Below are positions 3,079 to 28,592 of a stretch of DNA of 46,564 nucleotides, one piece after another. The number at the start of each line of letters is the position of its first letter. Position 1 is the stretch's first letter. Under the pieces are notes generated by a model that saw only the letters and a program-made list of their open reading frames with translations, did no database searches and was not told the DNA's origin. Position numbers and translations under genes: made by a program. The stretch lies in contig MNVD01000016.1 of NCBI GenBank assembly GCA_001871445.1, forward strand, positions 1-46,564. Direction: 5' to 3'. Origin of the DNA: Candidatus Magasanikbacteria bacterium CG1_02_41_34. Lineage in GTDB: Bacteria; Patescibacteriota; Patescibacteriia; Magasanikbacterales; UBA922.

Positions 3079-3747
3079 TTATAATACATAATGCACCGTC
3101 ACATCTGCGTGTGATTGCAAGATATGCACAGGAAAAGCATCACTCAGTTTTATAGGATGTCGCAATTCTTCATAGATGGGTCTTTTTTCTTCCCCTTGTA
3201 AGAGTATCAGAATCTGCTTTGCTTGCATAATTACTTTTGGACCAAGTGTCAATCTGTCATGTACAAAATGATGCATTGTCGTTGTATACATGACCGTATG
3301 TTCCATATCATTCAGCTGTGGTGAATATGGAAAGAGCGATGCGATATGACCATCCACTCCAACACCCAATACCACGAGATCAAATACTAACTCTGGTACT
3401 CGCGAAAGCACATGGCGATATTCGAGAAGTGCCGTACTTATAGGCTGTGTAGTATCAAAAAAATACATGCCCGCCCACTCACCTTCATGTTTCTTGCCAA
3501 GATTTTTATATATCATGCATGCATTTGCATCGGGATGATGTAATGGTACATATCGCTCATCCACTTGGTACAAAAATATTTTGGAAGGATCTTTTATTTT
3601 TTTTCCAAATTGTTCATACACGGGCACAGGCGTTTTGCCTCCGGCAAGTGCAAGATATCGATACTCCTCACTATCTACCACTCGAAGCATATGGACGACA
3701 CTCTCGCTGACAAATTCTTCTTGCGTATCAAAGGTACGAAATATCAT
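3079..3747 (-). CDS. pgl: 6-phosphogluconolactonase
   Basis: LAGGKTP, VDERYVP, DLVVLGVGVDGHIASLFP motifs; adjacent to zwf. Confidence 0.9.
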   Translation of the reverse strand: MIFRTFDTQEEFVSESVVHMLRVVDSEEYRYLALAGGKTPVPVYEQFGKKIKDPSKIFLYQVDERYVPLHHPDANACMIYKNLGKKHEGEWAGMYFFDTTQPISTALLEYRHVLSRVPELVFDLVVLGVGVDGHIASLFPYSPQLNDMEHTVMYTTTMHHFVHDRLTLGPKVIMQAKQILILLQGEEKRPIYEELRHPIKLSDAFPVHILQSHADVTVHYVL

Positions 3748-3770
3748 AAGACATCAACATTTGAAGGAAC

Positions 3771-5207
3771 TCACGAACGTGAGTGGACATCATACCAAGA
3801 ATAGCCATCCATACTTGTCAATCCATGTTGTGTTCGTGGGCCAGTACTCCCCTGTTCATAGGATTCGAGTCGTACTTTTTGTTTTCGCATGGTTTCATGA
3901 ATATCATCTACCACATGCCATGCCGCAAGTACTTCTGCAAAACTCACAAAATGCATATGGTTGCCGTGAAGTATATCAAGTAAGAGGGTGGCATGTTCTG
4001 ACAGACACCCATCCATATCACACGCAATCGAATCAGACGTTGTGAGTTGTTGGTAGCTTTGAAGATCTTCTTGTTTATTCATGAGCGTGACACTCACTTT
4101 TTCATCTGGAGCAAGATCAAAAATAAGTCTGTTTGGCTCTTCACTGTTGTCTTGAAATATAAACTTCTTTAATTCAACTACGACATAGGTGTGCGATTCG
4201 TGCAATTTTTTTCCGGTACGAATATACACAGGGACATTGTACCAGTCTTCTCTATTCAAAAAGAGACGGACCGCTGCAAACGTCTCTGTACGAGAACTTT
4301 TTAGGACTCCATGTTCTTTTTTGTATCCTCTATACTGTCCGACAACGACATTGTCATCAGTCGCACCGCACCCAGACGCTGAAATAACAGAAAGACGTTC
4401 TCGCTGAAGACTGTTTGCTGTTTTTGCAACAGGAATATCCATGGTGACAAGTGCAAGCATTTGGAGCAAATGCGACTGGATCATATCTCTCACAATACCA
4501 ACGGCATCAAAATACCCGGCCCGTTCTTCGACTCCTTTTGTTTCAAATTTTGTAATCTGAATATTTGAAATTTCTACTCCTTGCATCATGTGCGAAAGTA
4601 CACGATTACCATGACGAAGATTAAGCATACTGCGCACGACATTTTTTCCAAGATAATGATCGAGGAGAAACAGTTGATCTTCTCGAAAATATTGGGAAAC
4701 GAAATGAAAAAGTTCTGTTGCAGAGGCGCTACTCGTACCAAATGGTTTTTCGAGAATCAGACGGATATCTTCCCGTTTTGACGTGCGTGAAAGCGCAAGA
4801 TTTCGAATAATATCTTGAAATGCACTTGGTGGAACAGAAAAATATGCGAGGTGCGCAACACGTTGTTTTTTTCCATACAACATTCGAAAAAACGCATGGT
4901 ATTTTTCGAAATCAACAAGATCATTGTACTGCCCAGGGAAATAATGCACATGCGTCAACAATTCTGAAAGCACTTTTCTTACCGTTGCCTTGCCATATTT
5001 TTTGACAATGGCATCTGTCACTTCGGCATGAAATTCTTTTTTTGTCATCTTCGTCCGTGCATATCCAACAATCCAAAAATCTTTTGGCATGCGTCCATGT
5101 TCGAGCATTTCATAGAGAGCGGGGAAAATCTTCAGCTTTGCCAACTCACCAGACGCACCAAAAATGGTCAAAACAAATGGCTGTGTTGTATTTTTTTTGA
5201 CAGACAT
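3771..5207 (-). CDS. zwf: Glucose-6-phosphate 1-dehydrogenase
   Basis: IFGASGELA, LEKPFG, DHYLGK, RDMIQSHLLQ, YIRTGK. Confidence 0.95.
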   Translation of the reverse strand: MSVKKNTTQPFVLTIFGASGELAKLKIFPALYEMLEHGRMPKDFWIVGYARTKMTKKEFHAEVTDAIVKKYGKATVRKVLSELLTHVHYFPGQYNDLVDFEKYHAFFRMLYGKKQRVAHLAYFSVPPSAFQDIIRNLALSRTSKREDIRLILEKPFGTSSASATELFHFVSQYFREDQLFLLDHYLGKNVVRSMLNLRHGNRVLSHMMQGVEISNIQITKFETKGVEERAGYFDAVGIVRDMIQSHLLQMLALVTMDIPVAKTANSLQRERLSVISASGCGATDDNVVVGQYRGYKKEHGVLKSSRTETFAAVRLFLNREDWYNVPVYIRTGKKLHESHTYVVVELKKFIFQDNSEEPNRLIFDLAPDEKVSVTLMNKQEDLQSYQQLTTSDSIACDMDGCLSEHATLLLDILHGNHMHFVSFAEVLAAWHVVDDIHETMRKQKVRLESYEQGSTGPRTQHGLTSMDGYSWYDVHSRS

Positions 5208-5375: not shown

Positions 5376-6803
5376 TTATTCTTCTTGAGATTCCCAATCA
5401 GTATGAAACGTGCCAGGCTGATCAATACGTTCATACGTATGTGCACCAAAATAATCTCGAAGGCCTTGAATAAAATTGGCAGGAAGCCTATCTTCTATCA
5501 TTGATTCAAAATATGAAAGTGCTGAGGCAAACGCAGGATTTGGAATACCCGCATCGGCAGTAAACGCAACAAGCGAACGAAGTGCTGGTGTATGTTTTTT
5601 CATAATTGCCACAATCGTTGGTACCGCAAACACATGCGTATCACTCTTCTTGTGAGAGCTATACGCAACGTGCAACATATTCAACATCTTTGACCGAATG
5701 ATACAGCCCCCTTCCCAAATACGAGAGACTTCTGCCATATCGATATTCCATTTTTCTTCTGCAGACGTTGTTTGGATCAAATCGTAGCCTTGGGCGAATA
5801 CGGAGATGGTTGAGGCATAAAACGCATCTTCAAGTGTACGAATAAATCGTGTTTTAGACACTTTACTTTTTTTATACCAAGTGTTATATATTTTTCCGAG
5901 AGCTACTCGTTCTTTTTTTTGTGTAGAAGTATACCGAGCAAACACGGCTTCTGTAATTGTCGGTATGGCAACGCCTCTATCGAGCGCATCGATCGATGCC
6001 CACTTTCCTGTTCCTTTGTTGCTTGCCTTGTCGAGAATGTGATAAATAAGACACTTGTCTTCACCAGGATTGCACCCCTCTTTTAGTACCGGCACAGCAA
6101 TCTCCATAAGAAACGAAGAAAGTTTTCCTTTGTTGAATGTATGAAATACTTCTCCAATTTCAGGTGCTGACATATCAAAAACAGTATGCAACGTCTGATA
6201 CATTTCAGCCATCAGCTGCATGATGCCGTATTCAATACCATTGTGTACCATCTTCACATAGTGTCCTGCCCCACCATCGCCAATATACGTCACGCATGGT
6301 TTTCCACTGAAATCTTTTGCAGCGATAGCTTCGAATATTTTTTTTATTGATGCATACGCTTTTTTACTTCCTCCTGGCATGAGGCTGGGTCCATTTAGGG
6401 CTCCCGCTTCTCCACCAGACACTCCTGTGCCTATAAAAAAAATACCTCGTTTTTTTAAAGTCTCTGTTCGTCTCTCCGTATCACGATAAAAAGAATTCCC
6501 ACCATCAATAATAATGTCACCCTTATCGAGGTGTGCAAGAAGTCCATTGATTACCAAATCAACAGGTTTTCCATCCTTAATCATGAGCATAATTTTTCTC
6601 GGACGCTGGATGGAACGAACAAAGCTACTAGCTTGTTCAAATCCCAAAAAATCACCTTCATGTTCTTTCAAAAAAGTTTTTGTAACACTATGCGTTCGAT
6701 TGTACACGGACACACGAAATCCGTGATGCTCCATGTTTTGTACAAGTGCTTGGCCCATAGGTCCAAGACCAATGAGACCAACATCTGACAGGCGTTGTTT
6801 CAT
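5376..6803 (-). CDS. gnd: NADP-dependent 6-phosphogluconate dehydrogenase (decarboxylating)
   Basis: IGLGPMG, DGGNS, GVSGGEAGA, KMVHNGIEYG, LRDYFGAHTY; ATG at 6803 preferred over upstream TTG. Confidence 0.96.
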   Translation of the reverse strand: MKQRLSDVGLIGLGPMGQALVQNMEHHGFRVSVYNRTHSVTKTFLKEHEGDFLGFEQASSFVRSIQRPRKIMLMIKDGKPVDLVINGLLAHLDKGDIIIDGGNSFYRDTERRTETLKKRGIFFIGTGVSGGEAGALNGPSLMPGGSKKAYASIKKIFEAIAAKDFSGKPCVTYIGDGGAGHYVKMVHNGIEYGIMQLMAEMYQTLHTVFDMSAPEIGEVFHTFNKGKLSSFLMEIAVPVLKEGCNPGEDKCLIYHILDKASNKGTGKWASIDALDRGVAIPTITEAVFARYTSTQKKERVALGKIYNTWYKKSKVSKTRFIRTLEDAFYASTISVFAQGYDLIQTTSAEEKWNIDMAEVSRIWEGGCIIRSKMLNMLHVAYSSHKKSDTHVFAVPTIVAIMKKHTPALRSLVAFTADAGIPNPAFASALSYFESMIEDRLPANFIQGLRDYFGAHTYERIDQPGTFHTDWESQEE

Positions 6804-20821: not shown

Positions 20822-20850
20822 TTGACAAAAGCCAGAAACTGTGCTATAGT
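20822..20850 (+). promoter_or_regulatory. Sigma70-type promoter of rnpB
   Basis: TTGACA-17 nt-TATAGT with extended -10 TG. Confidence 0.85.
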
Positions 20851-20856
20851 TCTGTG

Positions 20857-21317
20857 GCTCTATACAACGTGATCGCTCGACCTCTGGGTCGAGAGGAAAG
20901 TCCGAACTCCTTCCCGACAGTGTCGGGAATCGTGATAGTGGGTAACACCCACCTGCCGGTATGTGAATATCTGGTACGGGCCAGTGCCACAGAGACAATA
21001 CTATCCCGACAGTGTCGGGAGAAACGTGAAAAGTGAACGGATGTTTTTATTCTATAGATAAAAGCTACTGTTCTCGTCTCGATAGCAATGTCGAGATGTG
21101 GTAAACCCTATCTGGAGAAAGTGCAGTGTTCCTTTGCTAAAGCTTCGAAACATAAACTTAATTACATATACATTGTATATGTATGGCGCTTGTGAGCCGT
21201 AGCTTTAGCGGAGGTTCAAAAAGTTAGCACGTGAAGATTTCATTAGTAATAATGAAACAAGAGAAATGATCACTCCCGACATCGTCGGGATACAAAATTC
21301 GGCTTATTGTATAGAGC
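20857..21317 (+). ncRNA. rnpB: RNase P RNA (type A-like)
   Basis: P1 GCTCTATACAA/TTGTATAGAGC, P2 GTGATC/GATCAC, P3 hairpin, GAGGAAAGTCC, GCCACAGAGA, GTGAAA, GGTAAACCC, P18 with GTAA tetraloop, ACAAAATTCGGCTTA. Confidence 0.95.
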
Positions 21318-21353
21318 AACAAAAAAACAGTCATGTAGACTGTTTTTTTGTTG
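21317..21353. terminator. Bidirectional terminator between rnpB and tRNA-Leu
   Basis: CAACAAAAAAACAGTC-ATGTA-GACTGTTTTTTTGTTG. Confidence 0.85.
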
Positions 21354-21437
21354 GTGCGCGGGAGAGGAGTCGAACCTCCATGCCCTTGCGAGCGTTACCA
21401 CCTCAAGGTAGTGCGTCTACCATTTCGCCACCCGCGC
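21352..21437 (-). tRNA. tRNA-Leu(GAG)
   Basis: GCGCGGG acceptor, TGG D-loop, anticodon loop TTGAGGT, long variable arm, GGTTCGACTCC, encoded CCA. Confidence 0.95.
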
Positions 21438-26783: not shown

Positions 26784-28592
26784 CTACATCTTCTCCACCG
26801 TCTCAATTCCAAGCAACAACAATCCGCGAGTCATCACGTCTCTGACAGTCTTAATAAGGAGAATGCGAAATTCTTTTACCTCTTCTTCCGCATCGAGTAC
26901 AGGACATACTGCATAAAAAGCATTGAACGCCTGGGCCAGTTCAAACATATACTTTGCAACATGTGATGGATCGTATTCTCGAACTGCTCGCTTTGTTATA
27001 TCAGGATAGGTAGCAAGTAACAAAAATAATTTCTTTTCTTCTGGAGTAATTGATGATTGTATATTGAAAATTGCTTGTTTCTTGTTACTTGTATTTTGTG
27101 CTTTTTCAAGGATACTTAAAATTCTCGCAACGATATACAGCAGATACGGTCCACTATCCCCTGTCGTCGACACGCTTTCTTCCATATCAAAGGCCACATC
27201 TTGCGAAACGTCTGCTTTGAGCATGGCATATTTCAATGCTGCACCAGTAATTTTTTGAATCGTTTCTTCGGACAATCCATGATCTTCGCCACGCTCTGCA
27301 AGGATTTGACGAATTTTTTCTTCTACTTCTTTCAGCAACTCGTCGCCACTAATAACATTCCCTTTTCTTGAACTCATTTTTTGTTCACCTTTCAATTGTA
27401 GATACCCACCAACCAGATGAAATTCCTTTCCTGTTGTTTGAGGAAGTAATTGTTCAAGTGCTTTGAAGACGACTTGAAAATACCCAGTCTGTTCCTTCCC
27501 TACCACGTGAATGACTTGATCAGGAGTAAAATCTGTAAAATGTTTTTCAGCAAGTGCAAGTTCCTTTCCTTCGTAGGTTGGATAGCCTTTGCTGTTGAGA
27601 AATACTCTGTCATGCAAATCATACTCACTGCCAGGGAAAATGACTGCTCCATCACTCTCGACAAAAATTCCTTTTTGTTTTCCTTCTTCCACAAGCTCAA
27701 CACCACGTTCGTACGTTTCTGATTCAAAATATAAACGGTCAAAATGACTGCCAAGTTTTTTGTAAATCGTATCAAAATAATCGAGACTCCACTGCCTTCC
27801 TGTTGTATATACTTCTTGTATGGAAGAATCTCGTTCGTACACCATTTCATTCAATCGAGCAATTGCCTTCTGTGCATCTTTATTTTCTTCATACGCATTT
27901 GCTCCTCTTGTGTATGCCTTGCCAAGAAATGCGACTCGTTCTTTGAGTATGCGTGATGATACCATTCTCACTTGCTCAGTAACTTCTTCCATAGTCAGAT
28001 GTTGTCCGTCGTCTGTCCCGCCTTTGGCAGGGATCCCGTCCGAAGGCGGGACAGTCTGTAGTCCATACAACACTTTTGCAATGTGCAGCCCAACGTCCCC
28101 CTGATAATTGACCCTCTTCACATCATACCCAGCATTTTCAAATACGCGAACAACGGATTCCCCCGTAACGAGATTCTTTAAATGACCAAGATGAAACACT
28201 TTCATCGGATTTGGGCAACCAAATTCAATCACCACCTGTTTTCCCTTGCCCTCAGTATGCATACCATACTGTTCACCTTCCTCAGTGATACCATTCAATA
28301 CAAATGACGCAACTTCTGCACCATCTAAAAAGAAGTTCACATATGGTCCAAAGGCTTTGACCTCTTTGATAAGACTAGATTGTATCATGTCTTCTTTTGC
28401 AAAGGCATCATTGAATTTTATTGCTAACTCAGTTGCAACATCAGTAGGACTTTTTCCCTCTTTTTTTGCCAACCAAAAACAGGGAAATGCGATATCACCC
28501 ATCTCAGAATTTGGAGGGGTAGAAAATTCTACCTTTTCAACACCAATGGCTTGTAATACTTGTGTTAGTTGACTTTCAATCTGTTTCATCAT
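26784..28592 (-). CDS. argS: Arginine--tRNA ligase
   Basis: FHLGHLKN HIGH motif, KMSSRKGN, GDSGPYLLY, FNAFY. Confidence 0.96.
   Translation of the reverse strand: MMKQIESQLTQVLQAIGVEKVEFSTPPNSEMGDIAFPCFWLAKKEGKSPTDVATELAIKFNDAFAKEDMIQSSLIKEVKAFGPYVNFFLDGAEVASFVLNGITEEGEQYGMHTEGKGKQVVIEFGCPNPMKVFHLGHLKNLVTGESVVRVFENAGYDVKRVNYQGDVGLHIAKVLYGLQTVPPSDGIPAKGGTDDGQHLTMEEVTEQVRMVSSRILKERVAFLGKAYTRGANAYEENKDAQKAIARLNEMVYERDSSIQEVYTTGRQWSLDYFDTIYKKLGSHFDRLYFESETYERGVELVEEGKQKGIFVESDGAVIFPGSEYDLHDRVFLNSKGYPTYEGKELALAEKHFTDFTPDQVIHVVGKEQTGYFQVVFKALEQLLPQTTGKEFHLVGGYLQLKGEQKMSSRKGNVISGDELLKEVEEKIRQILAERGEDHGLSEETIQKITGAALKYAMLKADVSQDVAFDMEESVSTTGDSGPYLLYIVARILSILEKAQNTSNKKQAIFNIQSSITPEEKKLFLLLATYPDITKRAVREYDPSHVAKYMFELAQAFNAFYAVCPVLDAEEEVKEFRILLIKTVRDVMTRGLLLLGIETVEKM
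27050..27098. repeat. Heptamer array inside argS
   Basis: ttgatga-ttgtata-ttgaaaa-ttgcttg-tttcttg-ttacttg-tattttg. Confidence 0.6.
28013..28054. repeat. 42-nt palindromic element in frame inside argS
   Basis: CTGTCCCGCCTTTGG...CCGAAGGCGGGACAG, 15-bp arms with one mismatch, central GGGATCCC. Confidence 0.8.

Follow-up and report, generated by a model that had tools for sequence, protein, structure and literature searches.

A miniature palindromic hairpin at three peripheral helices of the RNase P RNA of a Candidatus Magasanikbacteria genome and in other RNAs of its relatives

Background

The REP and REPIN sequences with their RAYT transposases are the closest described counterpart of the element reported here. 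They are short, GC-rich palindromic hairpins dispersed in tens of copies, belong to lineage-specific families of which one genome has several, occur as singlets and as inverted doublets, and are often found at gene ends as terminator or stabiliser hairpins (PMC3116915, PMC6006769). In the arrangement described for these systems as a REPtron, a Y1 transposase gene has such hairpins on both sides in inverted orientation (PMC6006769; PMC3116915). The Rickettsia palindromic elements (RPEs) are a second counterpart, a selfish-looking palindrome that survives within the essential genes of a reduced genome, a stable-RNA gene among them; R. bellii carries 526 copies, 53 of them in protein genes and one in the tmRNA gene (PMC1458961). 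A third is found in mitochondrial genomes, small and AT-rich, whose rRNA transcripts retain GC-rich, hairpin-forming mobile elements, the GC clusters and hairpin elements (PMC2800124, PMC4478555).

Repeats and exchanged hairpins are also known from RNase P RNA itself. In cyanobacteria, a genome-wide repeat family (STRR) occupies a variable peripheral helix of rnpB, and the gene is not lost (Vioque 1997, cited in PMC2858038). RNase P RNA of class B has a hairpin between P5 and P7 that replaces P6 and another between P2 and P4 (PMC2858038). The RNase P RNAs of CPR bacteria are diverged, with helices lost or extended; repeated identical hairpins are not reported in that account (PMC8172020). Here we describe a hairpin that stands at three helices of one such rnpB gene and recurs elsewhere in its genome and in the genomes of relatives.

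Results

The rnpB gene and its three hairpins

The window, by which we mean the whole 46.5-kb stretch of DNA that was analysed, comes from Candidatus Magasanikbacteria bacterium CG1_02_41_34, a groundwater bacterium with a genome of 1.04 Mb, assembled in 36 contigs at 96.75% completeness (G000 below; relatives are labelled in the same way). All relatives sampled likewise have genomes of 0.6 to 1.6 Mb. Its rnpB gene (Table 1) matches the covariance model RF00010 over positions 1-367, the full model, with 137.3 bits against a gathering score of 100, and a search of the whole genome returns this same match. The conserved core is present in the alignment, with both strands of P4 (GAGGAAAGUCCG ... 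ACAAAA..CGGCUUA) and the junction motifs that flank P12, and these columns are invariant in all four species of the genus. P13, P14 and P18 align as well, so the RNA is otherwise of class A. One hairpin stands where the model has the 5' strand of P6, and the P15-P17 arm aligns poorly to this model, which does not score pseudoknots. That arm has an extension of about 85 nt that makes up most of the surplus length of the gene; its tip is predicted to fold as a 9-bp AU palindrome, which is not part of the hairpin repeat.

Table 1. Features of the rnpB gene and its immediate surroundings, in positions of the window.
Feature	Position	Strand	Basis and remarks
Promoter-like site of rnpB: TTGACA, 17-nt spacer, TG-extended TATAGT	20822..20850	+	11 of 12 consensus matches; consensus match only
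rnpB, bacterial class A RNase P RNA	20857..21321	+	465 nt; RF00010
P3 hairpin, related stem CUCGACC / GGUCGAG	20876..20893	+	RF00010 alignment, comparison with relatives
Copy 1, P5.1-like helix, 8-bp stem, loop AGU	20911..20929 (17-mer 20912-20928)	+	Sequence and RF00010 alignment
Copy 2, helix P12, 7-bp stem, loop AGU	21004..21020	+	Sequence and RF00010 alignment
AU-rich, G000-specific extension of the P15-P17 arm	21131..21216	+	Gap in 3 of 3 sister species
Copy 3, helix P19, 7-bp stem, loop AUC	21274..21290	+	Sequence and RF00010 alignment
A-run, short stem-loop and T-run; likely two-way terminator	21321..21349		Sequence reading
Class II tRNA gene, long variable arm, read as Leu, anticodon GAG	21355..21437	-	RF00005, 48.7 bits

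The motif CCCGAC-N3-GTCGGG has exactly three matches in the window, starting at 20913, 21005 and 21275, and all three are within rnpB (none in any of 100 dinucleotide-preserving shuffles; 0 expected by chance). With its closing U-A pair, each copy is a 17-mer, UCCCGAC-N3-GUCGGGA. Copy 1 is an insertion directly after the 5' strand of P5 and before P7, where it takes the place of the 5' strand of P6. Copy 2 lies between the junction motifs ACAGARA and GUGAAA, and copy 3 occupies optional columns between the 3' strands of P2 and of P4. The first two are identical even in their AGT loops, at a distance of 92 nt, and the third has the loop ATC. An earlier, sequence-only reading of this DNA had described three such 17-nt hairpins, two of them identical, and had put them after the 5' strand of P4-P6, at P12 and at P19; the sequence confirms all three, and the covariance-model alignment agrees with every placement. 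By that alignment, all three hairpins are true helices in the periphery of a class A RNase P RNA, namely a P5.1-like helix, P12 and P19. The same reading had taken the P12 region to be nearly only this hairpin; the region is indeed short, but it aligns as a normal P12.

The promoter-like site ends 6 nt 5' of the start of the covariance-model match. The terminator-like element downstream, which the scan that listed the promoter-like site did not list, lies between rnpB on the forward strand and the tRNA gene on the reverse strand. ARAGORN also detects this tRNA gene, with no anticodon named, and the house hairpin (defined below) is absent from it. RnpA (PF00825) is found in 38 of 41 relatives, all three sister species included. 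Neither a PF00825 search nor tblastn with the G003 protein finds rnpA in the G000 assembly, most likely because of an assembly gap.

Hairpin-for-hairpin exchange in rnpB

Comparison of rnpB covered 39 genes from genomes and 11 from metagenome contigs. P12 carries the same stem in all four species of the genus (loops AGU, AGU, CAU and UUU), in G023 and G024, in G033, where it forms the tip of a longer P12, and in 11 of 11 metagenome contigs; other families of the order have near variants of it. At P19 the hairpin is found in G000, G015, G018, G033 and contigs L073 and L074, with a degenerate form in G024. P3 carries CCCCGAC..GUCGGGG in G010 and G023 and near variants of it in G005, G017 and G024. 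The rnpB gene of G033, a member of another family, has four copies: at the P5.1-like site, at the tips of P9 and P12, and at P19.

Within the genus, the four species align with nearly identical rnpB cores, and against this background two of the three helices differ outright. An unrelated hairpin of 21-23 nt occupies the P5.1-like site in the three sister species, and its flanks match those of G000 base for base. Their P19 is a UUCG-capped hairpin of another sequence, again between flanks that do not differ. These differences between G000 and its sister species are hairpin-for-hairpin exchanges. Selection for stability was considered as their cause and rejected: the G000 hairpins have predicted energies of about -11 to -12 kcal/mol and the sister helices -10 to -14 kcal/mol, so no stability is gained by the swaps.

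The copy at the P5.1-like site is clearly derived in G000, because only G000 and the distant G033 have the hairpin there. The direction of change at P19 is uncertain, since the hairpin is widespread at that helix and a tree built from one protein, with G004 as the outgroup, leaves the root of the genus open. In G015 and G018 the P19 hairpin is present beside a different P12, so the P19 copies were not simply copied from P12. The proposal of the sequence-only reading, that a repeat has colonised or replaced variable helices of the ribozyme, is supported in part. It fits the P5.1-like helix and P19, where sister species have unrelated hairpins. It does not extend to a recent colonisation of P12, whose stem is shared by the whole genus (four species), by several other genera and by the metagenome contigs. 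A single metagenome scan for intermediate or polymorphic forms of the G000 gene returned the 11 contigs, none of them G000-like.

A lineage-wide family of palindromes

In the whole G000 genome, exact CCCGAC-N3-GTCGGG has six copies, the three in rnpB and only three others, all of these non-coding and adjoining GC-rich genes. Among 40 relatives the exact motif ranges from 0 to 21 copies per genome; its control has a single match in G026 and none in the other 40 of the 41 genomes. Copies of the relaxed family CCCRAY-N3-RTYGGG number 20 in G000 and 43, 31, 29 and 15 in four relatives, with 0 for the reversed control in every genome counted. The term "dispersed mini-hairpin" of the sequence-only reading suits the relaxed family; in G000, copies of the exact form are few. 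Of 301 genomes of the class, 27 contain the 17-mer and none its control.

A census of all perfect hairpins in G000 shows the TCCCGAY stem with a 3-nt loop to be the most frequent GC-rich family; a second family, of the TCCGCC type, has 14 copies. TCCCGAY-N3-RTCGGGA, usually a perfect 8+1+8 DNA palindrome, is the house palindrome of this lineage (the house hairpin, as RNA). On the reading that we prefer below, three helices of rnpB have one sequence because that sequence is the house palindrome. Copy numbers and positions turn over fast among related genomes. G005 has its own variant at P12 and P19 (A-U for G-C at one stem pair), of which only 3-4 copies are found genome-wide there. An Rfam search at gathering thresholds with the G000 copies on contigs C16 and C36 found no known family, and no G000 copy of the family lies inside a clear coding region.

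Contexts outside rnpB

The sequence-only reading had set its proposal against the possibility that the hairpin was unique to rnpB. Copies were found instead in 23S rRNA, tRNAs, introns, terminators and untranslated regions; for the relatives, these contexts come from 19 loci of two copy-rich genomes. In G010, three identical 17-mers stand at the tips of conserved 23S rRNA helices at which G000 has other short hairpins, one of them UUCG-capped. A fourth exact copy in the G010 gene is not at an aligned helix tip but in an insertion that only G010 has, and three further copies of the Y variant fall within the span of the same gene. The 23S rRNA is assembled in 18 of 41 genomes, and among those 18 only G010 has copies in it. 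Elsewhere in the relatives, one copy is the variable arm of a tRNA-Ser(CGA), two variants are hairpins within a group I intron that interrupts tRNA-Thr(UGU), several copies form the GC centre of terminators whose outer stems are AT-rich, and others stand immediately ahead of Shine-Dalgarno sites. In G000, GC-rich lipoprotein genes have copies directly upstream of their Shine-Dalgarno sequence, and a GC-rich gene for a secreted protein is flanked by copies on both sides.

The hairpin also occurs in broken tRNA copies. In a tRNA-Ile copy at C16:6190-6290, for which the intact gene at 6323-6396 serves as the reference for the state before, one hairpin replaces four bases of the D-arm and another replaces four bases of the T-loop. 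A tRNA-Asp pseudo-copy of G010 has the 17-mer in place of its 17-nt anticodon arm. The corresponding tRNA-Asp fragment of G024 has one copy in the D-loop and one at the position of the anticodon arm, and is followed by a GIY-YIG ORF and then by an intact tRNA-Asp. G000 also has this tRNA-Asp fragment, with a 30-nt double hairpin of the TCCGCC family cleanly inserted at the same site of the D-loop, and here too a GIY-YIG ORF (Pfam E 8.5e-16) adjoins. The loops of broken tRNA copies are sites at which function is unlikely to select for a hairpin.

Candidate machinery

The 27 Y1-transposase matches of G000 stand almost without exception at the ends of contigs. They are from an IS200/IS605 element, found beside terminator hairpins, whose copies explain the fragmentation of the G000 assembly. 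As a cognate transposase for the house hairpin, the IS200/IS605 element was rejected, its G000 copies ending in other hairpins. The RAYT-like gene at C1:24516-25055 (Pfam Y1_Tnp, E 1.5e-7) was set aside for having no house hairpin nearby, and the Y1 genes of G010, G023, G033 and G028 for being flanked by other hairpin families. Inspection of the Y1 genes of G000, G010, G023 and G033 found no transposase or nuclease gene flanked by the house hairpin. In G010 and G023, the Y1 genes have other hairpins of 15-20 nt on both sides in inverted orientation, which is the REPtron layout.

Small GIY-YIG genes are a second candidate. Of seven GIY-YIG matches in G000, four are short ORFs located at tRNA loci. 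Small GIY-YIG proteins are encoded, for example, at C34:5852-6061 and C16:6493-6711. A GIY-YIG ORF lies within 300 nt of four family copies out of 20, against 0.10 expected, and these four copies fall in only two loci. Within the family, hairpin count has a raw rank correlation of rho 0.62 with GIY-YIG count and of 0.46 with Y1 count, modest values over 41 related genomes that are non-independent and confounded by relatedness and assembly quality.

Discussion

Spread at the level of DNA

Our preferred reading, to which we assign a probability of roughly 0.6, is that the house hairpin is a REP-like miniature palindrome that has spread at the DNA level and is kept as a neutral helix cap. The element would be copied as DNA into hairpin tips, or in exchange for them, wherever a hairpin is tolerated: helix tips of stable RNAs, arms of tRNAs, hairpins of introns, loops of terminators and ends of mRNAs. 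In rnpB it would serve as a neutral helix cap only, and its copies would owe their identity to copying of DNA rather than to convergent selection. A structure-specific nuclease acting on single strands or cruciforms may drive the process; the candidates are a Y1 transposase of the IS200/RAYT type or the small GIY-YIG nucleases encoded beside tRNA genes. The dispersal of the family, its varied contexts, the swaps in rnpB, the hairpins in broken tRNA copies, the rapid turnover of copies and the presence of candidate enzymes speak for this reading.

The loops are informative here. In G000, 13 of 19 copies have complementary bases at loop positions 1 and 3, as do 25 of 31 copies in G010 and G033 together, against an expectation of 25%. 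Such complementarity is meaningless for an RNA triloop and natural for an element copied or read on both strands, which argues for copying at the DNA level. The P3 hairpin of G023 is the exact reverse complement of its P12 hairpin over 19 nt, the 5-nt loop included. Identical palindromes in one RNA also compete in pairing: in the predicted ensemble of the G000 RNA, a duplex of copy 1 with copy 3 reaches 0.41 and the local hairpins 0.36 and 0.21. As modelled, this competition would be a folding cost, which selection for folding alone would not favour.

Several observations fit the preferred reading less well. Among 19 copies examined, no target-site duplication is seen beyond the T/A pair, and the flanks have no conserved foot. 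At 17 bp the unit is, to our knowledge, smaller than any described mobile unit; moreover, the changes in rnpB are replacements, not simple insertions, and we know of no transposition chemistry that explains them directly. The P12 copy is old and family-wide and may simply be inherited structure of the ordinary kind, and copy 1, whose loop is identical, could have been copied from P12 within the gene. We consider doubtful, though worth stating, a more specific proposition, that the 17-bp palindrome is the unit of a nuclease-driven, hairpin-for-hairpin replacement process that rewrites the helix tips of stable RNAs across Patescibacteria. In this process a GIY-YIG enzyme, or a Y1 enzyme of the HUH type, would cut at the base of extruded hairpins, and the same process would cover RNase P RNA, 23S rRNA, tRNAs and group I introns.

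Alternative explanations

The hairpin might instead be a module that acts as RNA, either the site of one lineage-specific RNA-binding protein, the alternative raised in the sequence-only reading, or a nuclease-resistant cap, placed repeatedly by selection, so that the three rnpB copies would recruit the same factor. We judge this unlikely, although much in the distribution of the copies agrees with it. The stem sequence is conserved while the loop varies. All copies checked are in transcribed places that tolerate a hairpin, and the fact that none is in a clear coding region of G000 means that a function at the RNA level fits as well. Positions directly 5' of Shine-Dalgarno sites and 3' of GC-rich genes resemble those of mRNA stabilisers, and imperfect copies retain G-U pairing on the sense strand wherever the strand of the RNA is known. 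Archaeal RNase P RNAs, with several sites for the one protein L7Ae, provide a precedent. Against this, no candidate protein was found, and a perfect A-form stem is rarely read by proteins through its sequence. A module of RNA gives no sense to the complementarity of loop positions 1 and 3 or to strand-symmetric loops, and it hardly explains the inverted pair at P3 and P12 in G023, the copies in loops of decaying tRNA fragments, or the swaps in rnpB that bring no gain in stability. Many close relatives, moreover, have no copies and a normal rnpB.

It is very improbable that the hairpins are ordinary structure, with P12 inherited, the other two helices derived by local duplication or conversion within rnpB, and the resemblance to hairpins elsewhere a coincidence among GC-rich stems in an AT-rich genome. 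The P12 stem found across the family and the identity of copies 1 and 2, loop included, are what such an origin would predict. The genome-wide counts largely refute it: the controls for the 17-mer and for the relaxed family are 0, those for the 15-mer are 0 in 40 of 41 genomes, and family counts reach 43. The house P19 of G015 and G018, beside a different P12, does not follow from duplication within the gene, nor do the identical 17-mers at aligned 23S tips of G010, where G000 has other sequences, or the hairpins in tRNA, intron and terminator contexts.

Pairing of the copies with one another, as a long-range helix between the P5.1-like site and P19 or as a dimer contact, in place of the lost P6 pseudoknot, is scarcely plausible. 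Any two copies of a palindrome are mutually complementary, both sites adjoin the P4/P5 end of the core, the 5' strand of P6 is missing in the lineage, the duplex of copies 1 and 3 exceeds either local hairpin in the predicted ensemble, and the P3 and P12 copies of G023 are complementary throughout, loops included. Local hairpins form first during transcription, however, and the duplex would cross P5; unrelated hairpins suffice at these sites in the sister species and most relatives, and the hairpin occurs singly in many RNAs. A site in double-stranded DNA that is transcribed incidentally (an operator for a dimeric regulator, a target of restriction-modification or a site that organises the chromosome) would suit a perfect palindrome with a free central base and fixed spacing and the copies in 5' regions of GC-rich genes, but deserves very little credence, as three to four copies in rnpB, several in a 23S gene and others in tRNA arms and intron hairpins follow no regulatory logic, and restriction sites are normally avoided, not enriched.

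Comparison with described systems

Under the preferred reading of spread as DNA, the nearest comparison is with REP sequences. We take the house hairpin to behave like a REP-type element, not to be a member of the REP family. It is likewise a short, GC-rich palindromic hairpin, dispersed in tens of copies, one of several lineage-specific families in its genome, and often at gene ends as a terminator or stabiliser hairpin. Inverted doublets with reverse-complementary loops occur beside singlets (at G024:C64 and in the TCCGCC family of G000), most house copies and all rnpB copies being singlets. Y1 transposase genes are present in these genomes and are flanked in relatives by inverted mini-hairpins of other families. 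Unlike REP sequences, the house hairpin is only 15-17 nt long and perfect instead of imperfect. It has no GTAG-type foot, the flanks past the closing T/A pair being unconserved in 19 copies, and no cognate Y1 gene was found beside it in a REPtron arrangement. Its copies inside stable-RNA genes replace resident helices, which is not described for REPs, and it is associated with small GIY-YIG genes at tRNA loci. We do not file it as a REP because two defining features, the foot sequence and a cognate transposase with flanking copies, were not found.

With the Rickettsia elements the house hairpin shares the character of a selfish-looking palindrome that survives in essential genes, stable-RNA genes included, of a reduced genome. 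RPEs are about 100-150 bp long and mostly noted in coding regions, in contrast to a unit of 17 bp at the tips of RNA helices. The window also contains a 42-nt palindrome, at 28013-28054 inside a putative argS gene, that belongs to another family and is a closer analogue of the Rickettsia elements than the house hairpin is. The mitochondrial GC clusters resemble it as GC-rich hairpins of mobile origin in small AT-rich genomes, but they are organellar and longer (at least tens of bases), and no link to a GIY-YIG/tRNA cassette is described for them. The intervening sequences of rRNA genes are inserted helices that RNase III excises from the mature RNA; the 7-8 bp stem of the house hairpin is far shorter than the usual substrates of that enzyme. 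The STRR repeats are alike in being a genome-wide family within a variable peripheral helix of rnpB, which we take to be P12. They differ in being tandem heptamers with no palindrome, in affecting one helix and not three, and in involving no exchange of whole helices. With class B RNase P RNA, G000 has in common the hairpin that replaces P6 between P5 and P7 and the hairpin between P2 and P4; it agrees with class B in the position of P5.1. In class B this helix docks on P15.1, of which no equivalent was identified in G000. The house family differs from these systems in its unit of 17 bp, its perfect symmetry, the absence of a conserved foot, the swapping of resident helices and the occupation of several tips of one essential RNA.

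Conclusions

Point mutation with compensatory change is the usual account of how the peripheral helices of RNase P RNA and rRNA drift. In the present case a helix is replaced as a whole, by a standard cassette that many other RNAs of the genome also carry. The poor covariance-model scores that rnpB genes of CPR bacteria receive are due in part to this motif, which also marks the sites at which helix swaps do not kill the ribozyme. The link with GIY-YIG/tRNA cassettes and with GC-rich islet genes offers testable enzyme candidates. If the replacement process proposed above is real, the palindrome would be the smallest mobile DNA unit known, and essential ribozymes would have a new route by which to change their peripheral architecture. 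If the exchange takes place at the DNA level, the REP and RPE concept would extend to a smaller unit that lives in essential RNA genes, and the unusual plasticity of structural RNAs in CPR bacteria (PMC8172020) would have a concrete mechanism.

Hairpin families and mobile elements in the genome

The 17-nt hairpin that occurs three times in the RNase P RNA gene (rnpB), TCCCGAY-N3-RTCGGGA, also brackets GC-rich islet genes of this genome (lipoproteins and one protein with a Tat signal), and in two of these cases a strong Shine-Dalgarno site follows directly 3' of the hairpin. A second mini-hairpin family in the same genome, TCCGCC-N3-GGCGGA, numbers 14 copies, often arranged as back-to-back doublets whose loops are reverse-complementary, and some of these doublets are flanked by A and T runs. 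A structured element of about 80 nt is likewise repeated, in both orientations; it consists of a longer stem tipped by a CCCGAT hairpin, followed by a CCCCUU-type hairpin.

One multi-copy IS200/IS605-type element explains 27 matches to the transposase model Y1_Tnp, and it breaks the assembly at roughly two dozen contig ends. Because one end of the element borders an A-run and then a terminator-like host hairpin, it seems to insert beside terminators.

Small GIY-YIG nuclease ORFs (85-120 aa) lie alongside the genes for tRNA-Asp, tRNA-Ile, tRNA-Ser and tRNA-Thr. Inspection of three of these loci (contigs C34, C16 and C29) showed duplicated tRNA fragments with mini-hairpins in their loops. The tRNA-Asp cassette is found again in relative G024, and also in relative G010, but there without the GIY-YIG ORF.

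RNase P in this genome and its relatives

In this genome the P15-P17 arm of rnpB is lengthened by some 85 AU-rich nucleotides, which end in a 9-bp AU palindrome and are missing from the rnpB of all three sister species. In one of them, G003, helix P3 holds a 90-nt insertion, and about 290 nt separate rnpB from a GIY-YIG ORF. Among other relatives, P12 of G011 has grown to about 250 nt and holds a GCAGGCAG-type hairpin, and P19 of G039 has a similar one; the family is the one that flanks Y1 transposase genes in relative G023.

Neither a Pfam model nor tblastn with the sister-species protein found rnpA, the gene for the RNase P protein, in the assembly. It is present in 38 of 41 relatives, and its absence here is probably an assembly gap. 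Beside rnpB, ARAGORN detects a tRNA gene and names no anticodon; by Rfam alignment it reads as Leu(GAG), with the first anticodon-stem pair mismatched.

Locations of features (C, contig of this genome unless another is named; L, fetched locus)
Feature	Location	Strand	Remark
17-nt hairpins at islet genes	C31:31851 and 32619; C36:71857; C28:4744; C16:21602 and 21666		
TCCGCC-N3-GGCGGA hairpins	C24:18105-18134; C32:9963-9992; C10:4829; C22:7773; C29:591 and 686		among others
~80-nt repeated element	C18:15257; C19:16389; C19:24658; C21:14282		
IS200/IS605-type element	C1:4-174; C12:21151-21321; C24:3-176		example contig ends; 0 in window
GIY-YIG/tRNA loci	C34:5731-6135; C16:6190-6800; C29:175-770; C18:8154-8570		last, tRNA-Thr
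P15-P17 extension	window 21131-21216		
tRNA beside rnpB	window 21352-21437	-	
rnpB and GIY-YIG ORF, G003	G003:C29:2970-3182 and 3474-3968		L037
rnpB, G011			L041
rnpB, G039			L030
42-nt palindrome	window 28013-28054		

The window also contains a GC-rich compound palindrome of 42 nt, from a family that differs from the rnpB hairpin, in a gene that the sequence-only reading calls argS. If it does lie inside this essential gene, it would be one more sign of palindromic elements in such genes here.
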